A stretch of 64,000 nt of DNA from an uncultured Candidatus Saccharibacteria bacterium (GCA_964436545.1 CAYTCJ010000001.1:142392-206391), one strand, 5' to 3'. Positions 8,623 to 64,000 are shown, counted from the stretch's first letter. The notes: generated by a model from the sequence alone, not told the origin. Numbers and translations are program-made.

Positions 8623-8697
8623 TGGTAGCGCTACCGGGAATCGAACCCGGATTTGTTGGATGAGAACCAACTATCCTAACCATTAGATGATAGCGCC
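8623..8697 (-). tRNA. tRNA-Glu (anticodon CUC) with encoded CCA
   Basis: Hand-folded cloverleaf: 7-bp acceptor, 4-bp D stem, GTTGG/CCAAC anticodon stem with loop TTCTCAT, 4-nt variable loop, CCGGG-TTCGATT-CCCGG T arm. Confidence 0.8.
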
Positions 8698-8915
8698 ATA
8701 TTGGGCAAGAATTATGAATTTTAAATTATGAATTAAGCAATGAGATTTATTTAACATTATCACTTTGCGGGTGACCACCCGAAGGGTGGGTGATAGCGCT
8801 ATAGACAGAATGATGAAAAACCAATTAACATTTACCAGCTTATCACAATGCTTTGTTTTTTTCAATATTTTATGACATAATATAAACACTGCATAGTTAA
8901 AACTTAAAAAGCTAA

Positions 8916-15111: not shown

Positions 15112-15517
15112 CTTGTCATCCCGTCCGCCAGCTGGCGGATTGATGCGGGATCCAGTTTATTTGATCAAGTTATTATATAAGTCTTGCCATTCAGGATTTT
15201 GTTTTTCAATTAAATCCAATTTCCATTTTCTTTTCCACTTTTTAAGCTGTTTTTCTCTTTCAATCGCAGATATTACTTCATTAGTTTGTTCATAATATAC
15301 TAAGGTGTGACATTTGTATCTCTTTGTAAAACCATCTGCTAAATTGTTTTTGTGTTGCCATGTTCTTTTTATTAAATCATTTGTGATCCCAATGTACAAA
15401 GTGCCGTTTCTTTTGCTTGCCATAATATATACATAGTAGTTTTTTTGATTTTTATACTTCATTGGGTGTTTTGTGTCTGGATCCCGCATCTCGGATGCAC
15501 TCGTGCGGGATGACAAG
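15112..15517 (-). mobile_element. GIY-YIG ORF enclosed by roughly 44-bp imperfect inverted-repeat arms
   Basis: Left arm CTTGTCATCCCG...GCGGGATCCAG (15112-15155) and right arm CTGGATCCCGC...CGGGATGACAAG (15477-15517) are reverse complements at both ends. Confidence 0.7.
15157..15462 (-). CDS. stand-alone GIY-YIG nuclease domain protein (101 aa)
   Basis: YYVYIMASKRNGTLYIGITNDLIKRTWQH and conserved E in AIEREKQLKKW. Start set at the internal ATG at 15462 because the track N-terminus runs through the repeat arm. Confidence 0.8.
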   Translation of the reverse strand: MKYKNQKNYYVYIMASKRNGTLYIGITNDLIKRTWQHKNNLADGFTKRYKCHTLVYYEQTNEVISAIEREKQLKKWKRKWKLDLIEKQNPEWQDLYNNLIK

Positions 15518-61011: not shown

Positions 61012-61776
61012 ATGTACAATTTTCCCAAATGGTTAGTAAATTTAGGGGTTGGTCTGTTAATTGTCTTCTTAGCGCTTTTGGTTTTAGATAAAGGTATTGG
61101 CTTGGGCAATAAGCTCACCGGCAAAAAACCCGATAATACTTTATCGGTTTCTGCTGAGGGTAAGGTGAAAGCCACACCCGATTTAGCCACCATTAATTTG
61201 GGTGTCATTACCCAAGGCGCAGAAGCTTCAAAAGTTCAAGACGATAACAGCAAAAAAATTAACAAGATTTTGGAATTTGTTAAAAAGCAGGGGATTACCA
61301 AAGACGATATTTCCACTTCTCAGTTTAACATTTACCCACAGTATAATTATACTAATGGTAAAAATGAGATTATTGGTTATCAGTTGGACCAAACCATTAC
61401 AGTAAAAGTAAAAGGGGTGGATAAATCCACGGAAATTTTAGGTAAAATTTTAAGCGGTGCGGTTTCGGAAGGTGCTAACCAAATTTATGGAGTTGCGTTG
61501 GGTTTTGATGATCCGGATAATTTAAGACAACAAGCCAGAGAATTAGCCATTGAAAAAGCCAAGGAAAAGGCCAAAGAATTGGCTAAAGTAGCGGGGATTA
61601 AATTAGGTAAAGTGATTAGCGTTTCCGAAGCGGGTAGTGGCAATTATCCTATGCCTTATTATGGAGCCGGTTATGGTGGCGGAGGTATGGCAATGGAAAA
61701 AGCAGTGTCTCCCAATATTGAACCGGGTTCGCAAGATGTAGTGGAAAATATGTCCGTAACGTTTGAAGTTAAGTAA
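61012..61776 (+). CDS. SIMPL/DUF541-family secreted protein
   Basis: TM/signal, then LSVSAEGKVKATPDLATINLGV...; a typical SIMPL-domain pattern. Confidence 0.8.
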   Translation: MYNFPKWLVNLGVGLLIVFLALLVLDKGIGLGNKLTGKKPDNTLSVSAEGKVKATPDLATINLGVITQGAEASKVQDDNSKKINKILEFVKKQGITKDDISTSQFNIYPQYNYTNGKNEIIGYQLDQTITVKVKGVDKSTEILGKILSGAVSEGANQIYGVALGFDDPDNLRQQARELAIEKAKEKAKELAKVAGIKLGKVISVSEAGSGNYPMPYYGAGYGGGGMAMEKAVSPNIEPGSQDVVENMSVTFEVK

Positions 61777-61789
61777 ACTAGTTTTACAT

Positions 61790-61819
61790 TTTTAAACCCC
61801 GCTAAACAGCGGGGTTTAA
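61790..61819. terminator. hairpin between the convergent SIMPL gene and rnpB
   Basis: TTTAAACCCCGC-TAAACA-GCGGGGTTTAAA 12-bp stem; there is no clean T-run on either side. Confidence 0.5.
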
Positions 61820-61824
61820 AAATG

Positions 61825-62560
61825 TTTAAAGCAAACTCATAAGCCGAATTCTGTTCACCCCGTTAGAAGTCCGGTGTCTAAAGACATCGGCAGACGCCTT
61901 TTGGCGTCTTACTTCTAACGGGGTTAACAATCATCTCTCTGGTCCCGATGTTACCACCGGGATCTTGCGACCTACCAAATTTGGTCTTGCACTCAAGTAA
62001 GAATTTAGCCGTTTCACCCGAGCGTTAGCGAGAATGTCCTACGAAGCCTTAGCATAAGTAGGCTACTCGTTTATTACTCGGCTCGCCCTGCCCTTTGCTT
62101 GCAAAGAGCGGGGCGTCCCGACTCTTTCGTATCGGGACGTCTCTGTTCGCATCTCGCACCTTACGGTGGACGGGGATTACCCGCTACTATTTTTGATAAC
62201 TCTTAAGCGGTCATCAAATAAGTGTTCGGACTTTCCTCCCCCCACTTTCTATCCTTTATTACAATTCAAAAGCTTGCAAGCTATTTTGAATACGTTTTTT
62301 TAGTTGCCCATAACTGCCTTTGAATTGTTTGAGATTTTTTTCTCTGGCTCTCGCATCTTTCTCTGATGCAAAAGCTTCGTAGTAAATCAATCCAACAGGG
62401 AGCCTATGTTTGGTATATCCTGATTGCAAAGACATATGTTCCTTAATTCTTCGCTTTAGGTCACTTGTGTAACCTATATAGATTTGACCACCTTTGGATA
62501 TTTTCAAAGCATAGACATAAAACATAGAAAGTGGGGGGCGATTGTTCGGTTTGCTTTAAA
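61825..62560 (-). ncRNA. rnpB: RNase P RNA (bacterial type A) interrupted in P3 by a 275-nt ORF-bearing insert
   Basis: GAGGAAAGUCCG, GGGUGAAACGGC, GCAAGACCAAAU, GGUAGGUCGCAAGAU, AGAGAUGAUUGUU and ACAGAAUUCGGCUUAUG motifs appear in the canonical order. P1, P2 and P3 pairings were verified by hand. Confidence 0.85.
62259..62525 (-). CDS. stand-alone GIY-YIG nuclease domain protein (88 aa) inside the rnpB P3 loop
   Basis: MFYVYALKISKGGQIYIGYTSDLKRRIKEH ... EKDARAREKNLK is a GIY-YIG signature; same strand as rnpB. Confidence 0.8.
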   Translation of the reverse strand: MFYVYALKISKGGQIYIGYTSDLKRRIKEHMSLQSGYTKHRLPVGLIYYEAFASEKDARAREKNLKQFKGSYGQLKKRIQNSLQAFEL

Positions 62561-62567
62561 CCGATTA

Positions 62568-62596
62568 ATAATATCATATTTTCAAAGCTTTGTCAA
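62568..62596 (-). promoter_or_regulatory. rnpB promoter TTGACA-17-TATTAT
   Basis: Complement of 62591-62596 is TTGACA; complement of 62568-62573 is TATTAT. The -10 element ends 7 nt before the first P1 nucleotide. Confidence 0.7.
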
Positions 62597-62683
62597 ATTT
62601 TATTTCTTTTGCACAAAAAATTTTCTTTGGAATGTTAGCATAATTATTGTATAATATTAAAGAAATTAAGTAATATTTTTGGA

Positions 62684-64000
62684 ATGAAAAAATCCGAATT
62701 AGTTTTTAATATTGTTTTAATCCCGATTGATTATATCATGCTCCTTATTGCCGGAGTGTTATCATTTTACATTAGGCAATACAGTCAACCCATTATCGGG
62801 CCGGTGATTTTTAAAATTACCGCTCAAGATTTATTAAAAGCGAGTTGGTATATAATTCCACCCTTAATTATTATTTTTGCTTTACTTGGGCTTTATAATT
62901 TAAAAGGTACCCGAAGTTTTTTATTTCAAGCCGGCAAAGTATTTATTGGGGTATCTTTGGGTTTATTATTGGTGATTTTGTTGTTCTTCTTTGATCAGAC
63001 AATTTTTCCTTCTCGGTTCATTATTTTAAGCACGTGGGTATTGGGAATAGTTTTCGTTTTGCTGGGGCGGATTAGTTTAAAATTGTTGCAAACCTATTTA
63101 TTCCAAAAAAATATCGGTCTGCATAAATTGGTATTAATTTGCAGTGATAGCCATCCGGCCATCAGTGAATATTTAAAAAATAAAGCAAATGGATATTTGG
63201 TCACTGCTGAGGAAAAATTTAATGCAGATATAATGGTTAAATTACAGACTCTGTATAAACAAGGGTTACTCGATGAAATTTTGCAGACCGATCAATCTTT
63301 AAGTTACGAAGCTAACTGGCAACTGGTGCAATTTGCCAGAAACCATGGAATTGCTTTTAGCTATTTGCCTAATTTATTTGAAGTACAAAATAATTCCTTG
63401 GAAACCTTAAATATCGATGGTTCCTTAATTATTTTTTTAAAAAATTCCCCTTTGGATGGGTGGGGGAAAGTGGTGAAGCGAATTTTAGATATTATTTTTT
63501 CCATAATTTGCTTAACACTTACCGCCCCGTTATTTTTAATCATTGCCTTAACGGTAAAATTTACCAGTCCGGGTAAAGTGTTTTATGTGGCTAAACGAGG
63601 TGGTAAGGGCAAAGACTTTGATTTTTATAAATTTCGAACCATGCACACACATTTGTCCGTAGGTAATAGTTATGGTGGTCAAGAAGCGGAAAAAGTCAGA
63701 CAAATGTTATGGGAAAAAAATGACCGTGGCGGAATTGCAAGCCCATTTTTAAAAATCAAACATGACCCCAGAGTAACTCGGGTAGGCAGATTTTTAAGAA
63801 AAACCAAACTGGATGAAATTCCTCAATTTTGGAATGTGCTTAAAGGTGATATGAGTTTGGTGGGCCCTAGGGCGCATGTGTTAGACGAAGTGGAAAAGTA
63901 TAGAAATAAATATAGACGCATGTTTAGTATAAAACCGGGGATATTCGGTTTGTCGCAAATTGCTCAAATGCACAGACCTGATTTGCCCTTTAACGATGAA
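62684..64000 (+). CDS. polyprenyl-phosphate sugar phosphotransferase (WbaP/bacterial sugar transferase family), 3'-truncated by the window end
   Basis: Hand translation in frame from the ATG at 62684: N-terminal TM helices, then SPGKVFYVAKRGGKGKDFDFYKFRTM...DEIPQFWNVLKGDMSLVGPR. Absent from the ORF track because no stop lies in the window. Confidence 0.88.
   Translation, partial: MKKSELVFNIVLIPIDYIMLLIAGVLSFYIRQYSQPIIGPVIFKITAQDLLKASWYIIPPLIIIFALLGLYNLKGTRSFLFQAGKVFIGVSLGLLLVILLFFFDQTIFPSRFIILSTWVLGIVFVLLGRISLKLLQTYLFQKNIGLHKLVLICSDSHPAISEYLKNKANGYLVTAEEKFNADIMVKLQTLYKQGLLDEILQTDQSLSYEANWQLVQFARNHGIAFSYLPNLFEVQNNSLETLNIDGSLIIFLKNSPLDGWGKVVKRILDIIFSIICLTLTAPLFLIIALTVKFTSPGKVFYVAKRGGKGKDFDFYKFRTMHTHLSVGNSYGGQEAEKVRQMLWEKNDRGGIASPFLKIKHDPRVTRVGRFLRKTKLDEIPQFWNVLKGDMSLVGPRAHVLDEVEKYRNKYRRMFSIKPGIFGLSQIAQMHRPDLPFNDE

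Follow-up and report, generated by a model that had tools for sequence, protein, structure and literature searches.

Insertions encoding GIY-YIG proteins in the ribosomal RNA (rRNA) genes of the Patescibacteria, the bacteria of the candidate phyla radiation (CPR), were reportedly first noted by Brown et al. in 2015. They have been described in 16S and 23S rRNA genes as a family of non-intron insertions (Tsurumaki et al. 2024, PMC11270868), and this is the closest described kind to the arrangement presented here. The latter lies in 64,000 nucleotides (nt) of DNA from an uncultured Candidatus Saccharibacteria bacterium (GCA_964436545.1 CAYTCJ010000001.1:142392-206391), this whole stretch being called the window in the following. 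Its minus strand carries rnpB, the ribonuclease P (RNase P) RNA gene, in which helix P3 of the ribozyme encloses an open reading frame (ORF) for a GIY-YIG protein of 88 amino acids. As in the rRNA genes, a small GIY-YIG ORF free of intron features sits at the tip or base of a stem-loop in an essential structural RNA of the same phylum, and its occurrence is sporadic. Both the window locus and a 23S rRNA gene which harbours a member of the same ORF family between 18-base-pair (bp) arms (L031; L numbers denote comparison loci from other assemblies) contain a GIY-YIG ORF in a non-intron insertion of a CPR structural RNA gene. The host is different, however, as the described family is defined on rRNA hosts whereas here it is the RNase P ribozyme, with P3 occupied in the window and the P15-17 arm in relatives. 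Furthermore, arms bracketing the ORF, copies in transfer RNA (tRNA) leaders, and hairpin relics lacking an ORF do not form part of that description (PMC11270868).

Parts of the anatomy are shared with other systems. RNase III cuts out the intervening sequences (IVSs) in the 23S rRNA of Salmonella, Leptospira, Coxiella, and others, and the rRNA is not rejoined afterwards; some of these IVSs carry an ORF (23S_rRNA_IVP), and RNase III-cut IVSs are a precedent (PMC11270868). The window locus resembles them in having an extra segment at the apex of a helix with a long complementary closing stem (13-14 bp, about 22 bp with the predicted extension), in its sporadic occurrence, and in a host RNA which would work as non-covalently joined pieces. 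It differs from them in that excision is known there and only proposed here, and in that the host is rnpB and the ORF encodes a predicted nuclease. We know of no naturally fragmented bacterial RNase P RNA. With the GIY-YIG homing endonucleases, be they intron-encoded like I-TevI or free-standing like Seg and Mob of T-even phages, the element has in common the catalytic domain, the residence in conserved essential genes, the presence or absence at a site, and what looks like a cycle in which the gene is gained, decays, and is lost. In contrast to these enzymes the protein has only 88 amino acids and no DNA-binding domain, there is no intron, inverted repeat arms are part of the unit, the family resides on chromosomes with almost no members in viral contigs, and the closest structures are UPF0213 (1ZG2, 1YWL) and SLX1 rather than I-TevI. 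The REPIN-RAYT system, in which palindromic REP doublets accompany a flanked nuclease/transposase gene, is similar by anatomy only: a palindromic repeat flanks a small nuclease gene on both sides, and ORF-less repeat copies are scattered nearby (five in L018; hairpins within rnpB of L015 and L017). There the enzyme is a Y1 HUH transposase, however, whereas here it belongs to the GIY-YIG type, and many ORF copies occur per genome, within RNA genes and on the strand of the host.

The original prediction, which was made from the window sequence, had described a type-A RNase P RNA on the minus strand with a 12-bp P1, a paired P2, a CCGAA/UUCGG pairing which covaries relative to E. coli, a TTGACA-17-TATTAT promoter 7 nt before P1, and a perfect 13-bp P3 around 275 nt, this insert being a same-strand ORF whose ATG abuts the 5' strand of the stem and whose stop codon lies 8 nt before the 3' strand. 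All of these features were found again, with the refinements given in Table 1. Promoter and 5' strands of P1 and P2 precede the ORF, while P4 and the rest of the ribozyme follow it. The strands of the P4 pseudoknot (GAGGAAAGUCC ... ACAGAAnnCGGCUUA) are present in the order canonical for type-A RNase P RNA, and the other type-A elements between them also follow in canonical order down to ACAGAAUUCGGCUUAUG. The promoter is the sole promoter-like site on the minus strand within 61700-62750, and promoter-like hexamers are seen at the equivalent position in L006 and L008.

Table 1. Coordinates of the rnpB locus and its nested reading frame in the window
Feature	Position	Strand	Remarks
rnpB transcription unit, type-A RNase P RNA with insert	61824..62561	-	about 738 nt, complete; RF00010 match, P1/P2/P3/P4 pairings, fold
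Sigma-70-like promoter	62568..62596	-	TTGACA 62596-62591, 17-nt spacer, TG-TATTAT 62573-62568; 11 of 12 consensus positions matched
P1 5' strand GUUUAAAGCAAAC	62549..62561	-	13-bp complement of 61824-61836; 12 bp (62560-62549 / 61836-61825) without the pair 62561/61824
P1 3' strand GUUUGCUUUAAAC	61824..61836	-	pairs with 62549-62561
P2 5' strand AACAAUCG	62539..62546	-	8 bp with UGAUUGUU; core AACAAUC 62546-62540 / GAUUGUU 61932-61926 plus one G-U pair
P2 3' strand UGAUUGUU	61926..61933	-	pairs with 62539-62546
Cassette 5' arm, P3 5' strand CCCCCCACUUUCU	62526..62538	-	abuts AUG; unchanged in six rnpB loci
GIY-YIG ORF (UPF0213/YhbQ-type), single domain, 88 amino acids	62259..62525	-	267 nt; ATG 62525-62523, TAA 62261-62259
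Spacer UAAAGGAU, stop codon to 3' arm	62251..62258	-	8 nt; pairs with the first codons in the predicted fold
Cassette 3' arm, P3 3' strand AGAAAGUGGGGGG	62238..62250	-	perfect 13-bp complement of the 5' arm (62538-62526 / 62250-62238); 14 bp if the A of AUG pairs with U62251
P4 5' strand and conserved region GAGGAAAGUCCG	62227..62238	-	single exact match in the window
P4 3' strand and conserved region ACAGAAUUCGGCUUAUG	61838..61854	-	CCGAA pairs with UUCGG
G+C-rich hairpin AAACCCCGCU-GUUU-AGCGGGGUUU	61794..61817	-	directly after P1; weak Rfam matches to terminator hairpins of small RNA families

When Rfam was applied to the whole window at gathering thresholds one tRNA and no RNase P was obtained. 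In E-value mode RF00010 matched 61824-62284 with 58.6 bits (E 4.5e-17), which is below the gathering score of 100 bits, and as the model is unable to span the insert, the 5' end of this match was misaligned into the ORF. The RNase P RNAs of CPR bacteria are divergent, have large helix extensions, and commonly stay below Rfam thresholds (PMC8172020). Two of the comparison loci, L008 with 141 bits and L015 with 111.8 bits, exceed the gathering score even with the insert. In eight loci the sequences of P1 and P2 vary while their complementarity is kept; covariation of P1 was found in L002, L006, L011, L015, L017, L042, and L156, and that of P2 is exemplified by GAUAGCCG/UGGCUAUC and AGAUGAUCG/UGAUCAUCU in relatives. 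In every rnpB locus with the ORF at this place about 35 nt located 5' of the ORF pair with sequence 3' of P4, making P1 and P2. Because these two helices straddle the ORF and covary, the ORF is truly within the RNA, and selection maintains the split helices. Compensatory variants occur in the P3 arms as well (CACCUUCU/AGAAGGUG in L216). In the predicted minimum-free-energy fold of the 736-nt transcript as a whole (z = -13) P1 and P3 are retained, the ORF forms a closed domain, and P3 grows to about 22 bp and takes in the AUG. No second P4 motif was found within the 64-kb window. The best explanation for the locus is a working type-A RNase P RNA gene of a Patescibacteria bacterium in which P3 is built from the arms of a cassette.

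The same layout is encountered in other assemblies. The identical protein occurs in the same context on an independent Logan contig, and homologues with 95%, 83%, 71%, 68%, 64%, 61%, and 55% identity are found at the same place, directly 5' of an RF00010 match or a P4 motif, in JGI, ENA, Logan, and NCBI assemblies including genomes of Doudnabacteria, Buchananbacteria, and Falkowbacteria. The layout was seen in L001-L006, L008/L017, L011, L015, L042, and L216, with the same junctions in at least five independent assemblies from different samples. The protein itself matched the Pfam GIY-YIG profile PF01541 with 54.5 bits at a cut-off of 22.6 (E 1.5e-14), in agreement with its original assignment. 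Its closest solved relatives are the single-domain UPF0213 proteins BH0048 (PDB 1ZG2, E 5.6e-13) and EF2693, SLX1 being more distant, and the catalytic-type residues Y5, Y16, G18, R26, H30, and E62 were invariant across 29 sequences. Comparison of the window ORF with that of L002 yielded a ratio of nonsynonymous to synonymous substitution rates (dN/dS) of 0.16. In the remaining pairs the silent sites are saturated (proportion of differing silent sites, pS, 0.75-0.97) and the corresponding proportion for nonsilent sites, pN, is only 0.15-0.33, a substitution pattern which shows purifying selection on the ORF. As the layout recurs in independent assemblies, P1 and P2 show covariation, and selection on the ORF is purifying, a mis-assembly or a decaying pseudogene, both raised together with the original prediction, are very unlikely. 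A Shine-Dalgarno-like motif precedes only about 7 of the 37 long ORFs of the window, even with a lenient pattern, and leaders are A/U-rich; since the genome rarely uses such a motif, its lack at the P3 ORF is uninformative and was rejected as a clue. The window contains a second small GIY-YIG ORF of another subfamily (15157-15440, minus strand; …NYYVYIMASKRNGTLYIGITNDLIKRTWQHK…REKQLKKWKRKWKLDLIEKQNPEW…) with 37% identity to the P3 ORF over 62 amino acids (tblastn E 1.7e-7), which is listed with 136 amino acids and a GTG start and is probably overextended.

To see how often P3 is occupied, metagenomes were scanned with an rnpB motif independent of P3, which yielded 120 related loci. Most of these have an ordinary P3 of 5-12 bp with a loop of 3-7 nt, the counts of small P3 helices being approximate as the automatic P1 finder failed or gave spurious long-range pairs in some metagenome loci. 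In ordinary loci 36-49 nt separate the start of P1 from P4, versus 322 nt in the window. A GIY-YIG ORF was present within P3 in three of the 120 loci (L135, L156, and L166; about 3%) and within the P15-17 arm in one (L187), and two further genomes have an ORF at the P16/P17 position (L037 and L043). The comparison with empty relatives suggested along with the original prediction thus gave presence and absence at one conserved site among related genomes, as seen with homing genes. At least three types of arms occupy P3 (CACUUUCU, CACCACUU, and CAUCUAAC). In addition, long P3 stems with cassette-like arms but without an ORF were found in L130, L151, L154, L187, and L206; the ORF-less P3 stems of relatives enclose 28-150 nt and are candidate relics. 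Occupied, empty, and ORF-less long-stem forms of P3 therefore coexist among related rnpB genes.

The ORF belongs to a large family, with more than 1000 relatives in the protein collection, the named ones nearly all from Patescibacteria, and at least 542 copies in species-representative genomes. A scan of viral contigs gave four weak matches only, and a phage origin was dropped in view of this near absence. The genomic context was recorded for 69 ORFs, taken from the best 80 of the at least 542 loci in species-representative genomes. Among them 26 end 1-39 nt upstream of a tRNA on the same strand, most often tRNA-Ala, and none of the 69 adjoins a tRNA on the opposite strand. Six are located in rnpB, four in P3 and two in the P15-17 arm, and one within a 23S rRNA gene, namely in domain I of a Moranbacteria gene (L031 1340-1630) where the 18-bp closing stem is CCCAGCACCUAACAAGCU / AGCUUGUUAGGUGCUGGG. 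Rfam detected no host RNA around 16 cassettes from other contexts; these copies lie in intergenic hairpins, often just 5' of genes. On one Patescibacteria contig there is a group I intron match (L044 569-801; RF00028, 49 bits) which precedes a cassette by about 1.2 kb and is unrelated to it.

A perfect flanking inverted repeat of at least 9 bp (9-22 bp) was found for 37 of 67 family ORFs, as compared to 0.55% of shuffled controls. The 5' arm of the repeat is C-rich and lies right before the start codon, and the 3' arm is G-rich and begins 0-3 nt past the stop codon. Protein similarity tracks the type of arm rather than the host site. For example, the P3 copy of L156, which has CACCACUU arms, is nearest to the intergenic copies L026, L048, and L079 and to the P16/17 copy L037, all with the same arms, and L218 has arms close to those of the window, with one compensatory pair different (CACUCUCU/AGAGAGUG), at a location outside rnpB. 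As similarity follows arm type and not site, the arms belong to the cassette unit, and these sequence comparisons show that they move with the lineage of the ORF, not with the host site. One genome may hold several copies whose arms differ (L017 and L058; L025 and L073).

Hairpins without an ORF were detected near cassettes in 19 of 81 loci by a structure-based search. This replaces an earlier search with an exact 9-mer from the start of the arm, which had found none, an artefact of the choice of core. In L008/L017 (2405-2510, 2702-2726) and L015 (2670-2694) the rnpB gene with the P3 cassette also bears hairpins which have almost the same arms but no ORF. They are located at P12 (CCCCCCACCUUCU…AGAAGGUGGGGGG, enclosing about 83 nt) and at P19 (CCCCCACUUUC/GAAAGUGGGGG). 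The rnpB gene of the window contains two C-run/G-run hairpins in the style of such arms, one after P12 (62086-62113, minus strand; CCCCGCUCUUUGC-AA-GCAAAGGGCAGGG) and the other a 14-bp P19-like stem around 40 nt (61857-61924, minus strand; ACCCCGUUAGAAGU / ACUUCUAACGGGGU). ORF-less palindromic hairpins with cassette-type arms (e.g., CCCCCAUCUUUU…AAAAGGUGGGGG), single or in arrays, were observed in L018 (1786-2372), L012, L016, L055, L059, L061, and L065. They lie beside ORF-bearing copies, often just 5' of genes for secreted proteins of the MKK… type, and the motif GAAAAGGTCGAA recurs nearby.

Cassettes upstream of tRNAs have a peculiarity of their own. In L014, L019, L020, L021, L025, L028, L034, L045, L073, L077, L082, and others (around 1985-2290) the leading 4-5 nt of the tRNA form part of the 3' arm. 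Just ahead of the 5' arm stands a direct repeat which copies the initial 8-19 nt of the downstream unit (tRNA positions 1-10/11, at most 19 nt) and could be a target-site duplication or a decoy hairpin. In L022 (1852-2497) the entire tRNA-adjacent unit is tandemly duplicated. A 7-nt CCGAACA flanking the insert of the window was considered as a direct repeat and dismissed as chance, being absent from L008. The sole tRNA of the window (8626-8697, minus strand) is preceded about 75 nt upstream by a copy of its 5' end (AGCGCTATCA), followed by a hairpin CCCACCC-TTCG-GGGTGG (about 8770-8800, minus strand); this resembles the direct repeat plus arm of the tRNA cassettes and may be a relic.

A likely interpretation of these data is that a compact, probably selfish GIY-YIG cassette is co-transcribed with rnpB and that its arms act as P3. 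The cassette consists of the C-rich 5' arm, an ORF of about 265 nt for a single-domain UPF0213/SLX1-like GIY-YIG nuclease, and the G-rich 3' arm. Members of its family lodge at the hairpin tips of stable RNAs (P3 and P15-17 arm of rnpB, 23S rRNA) or immediately 5' of tRNAs, in each case on the strand of the host. It may be, or may formerly have been, a selfish mobile element for which rnpB offers a safe and strongly transcribed harbour. With no promoter of its own it would be transcribed from that of rnpB. In the RNA the arms would clamp the ends of the insert, which would juxtapose P2 and P4 and allow the ribozyme core to fold. The extended stem of about 22 bp burying the AUG might be tolerated as a giant extension of P3, or it might be cut by a double-strand-specific RNase without religation, as are the IVSs of 23S rRNA. 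If cut, the RNase P RNA would consist of two pieces joined through P1, P2, and the stump of P3, and the ORF would be freed as an almost leaderless messenger RNA (mRNA). As stated in PMC11143913, which cites Guerrier-Takada and Altman 1992, active M1 RNA has been reconstituted from fragments. The nuclease would probably act on hairpin or palindrome targets in DNA and thereby spread or maintain the cassette.

A number of points weigh against this interpretation. Co-transcription, translation, cleavage, and the two-piece ribozyme are all deduced from sequence, the activity and target of the nuclease are predictions, and it is the distribution of the copies which suggests mobility. Recent polymorphism between empty and occupied forms inside one species was not seen. 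The rnpB copies do not have the target direct repeat of the tRNA-adjacent ones, so that a single mechanism of insertion is not established. The protein consists of the catalytic domain alone, without the DNA-binding module of classical homing endonucleases, and its strong and deep purifying selection would suit a host-beneficial role no less than a selfish one. In six rnpB loci the 14-nt arms do not vary at all despite ORFs saturated at silent sites, which points to a sequence-specific constraint or reader for which the model names no candidate. A second rnpB may be located elsewhere in the genome, as the search for it covered the 64-kb window.

The alternative which survives best, although we regard it as rather unlikely, is that the insert is never removed, so that mature RNase P RNA keeps a P3 extension of about 300 nt and one molecule is both ribozyme and mRNA. 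The length of P3 is naturally variable, CPR RNase P RNAs tolerate large helix extensions (PMC8172020), relatives have the ORF-less P3 stems mentioned above, and the closed ORF domain of the predicted fold, with P1 and P3 kept, would be compatible with retention. However, the AUG and first codons would be buried in the extended stem of that fold, ribosomes on the loop would have to open P3 beside the catalytic core, and by analogy with the rRNA IVSs the long perfect stem resembles a substrate of a double-strand RNase.

The main rival to a selfish element, although it is improbable to a greater degree, is that the GIY-YIG protein is a domesticated host factor of tRNA or RNase P biology, such as an RNA processing or quality control nuclease or an RNase P accessory protein, placed in these units for co-regulation. 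The size of the family (at least 542 relatives), its near confinement to Patescibacteria with almost no members in viral contigs, the strong purifying selection, and the embedding of about half of the copies in same-strand tRNA or rnpB units would all suit such a factor. Yet only about 3-4% of the sampled rnpB genes are occupied. This sporadic occupancy, the existence of ORF-less relics, the several copies with different arms per genome, the switching of sites which follows the ORF lineage, and the DNA-nuclease-type UPF0213/SLX1 domains as closest solved relatives together make up the signature of a selfish element.

Still less credible, with hardly any probability left, is that the locus is a disrupted and decaying rnpB and that a second, intact gene supplies the enzyme. 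It would fit the Rfam score of 58.6 bits and the view of the genome being limited to the window, but such sub-threshold scores are usual for CPR rnpB (PMC8172020), and L008 and L015 exceed the gathering score with the insert in place; moreover, the layout is kept across lineages with silent-saturated ORFs, P1 and P2 show compensatory changes, P4 is intact, and the window has no second P4 motif. The idea of an assembly chimera, or of a group I or II intron which splices itself, is already contradicted. In its favour, other structural RNA genes often contain group I introns with a GIY-YIG ORF, and a weak NCBIfam match to a group I intron endonuclease was obtained (19.7 bits, cut-off 56). However, only 8 of the 275 inserted nt are noncoding, leaving no room for an intron core, as the original prediction had also stated, no intron family was found in 61600-62800 at E ≤10, and the junctions recur in independent assemblies.

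With regard to the rest of the locus, the G+C-rich hairpin directly after P1 is a possible terminator shared with the convergent SIMPL gene, an assignment of low confidence, and the terminator scan did not call it.

The original prediction had also claimed that no such case was described. A literature search for an ORF or IVS in an RNase P RNA gene, bracketing arms, an association with tRNA leaders, GIY-YIG proteins with tRNA in Patescibacteria, and UPF0213/YhbQ gave no relevant report, the literature covered being incomplete and the result absence of evidence only. Within this limit the claim stands for the RNase P RNA as host, but not for the kind of insertion, which is already described in rRNA genes (PMC11270868), and the window is not singular. 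Given this precedent the novelty lies in the host RNA and the anatomy of the cassette and not in the principle of an ORF in a structural RNA; it is narrower than originally claimed, while the scope is wider, extending to a large cassette family of Patescibacteria. One may speculate further, although this is rather unlikely, that arms and mini nuclease represent an unrecognised class of hairpin-resident mobile element in Patescibacteria, in which an SLX1-like enzyme directed to structures or palindromes spreads its gene into the hairpin tips of stable RNAs. The ORF-less relics would then be a main source of the odd helix expansions in CPR RNase P RNA and rRNA, and the lineage would run on a natural two-piece RNase P, with the excised P3 loop as nuclease mRNA.

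The arrangement is real, selected, and recurrent, as at least three types of arms occupy P3 and the P15-17 arm is used as well. A nuclease gene nested in P3 poses the question of how the ribozyme matures, and with it whether RNase P RNA may occur in natural fragments in bacteria, or may contain a translated loop of 300 nt. It further raises the questions of how ORFs buried in the precursors of stable RNAs are expressed, and what gives rise to the unexplained extensions of helices in the structured RNAs of CPR bacteria and to their sub-threshold Rfam scores. Such inserts hide rnpB from standard annotation, where the gene is used as a check of genome completeness. The cassette family is abundant, and its proteins go under the sole annotation 'GIY-YIG nuclease family protein'; in CPR genomes it marks the loci of tRNAs and rnpB.

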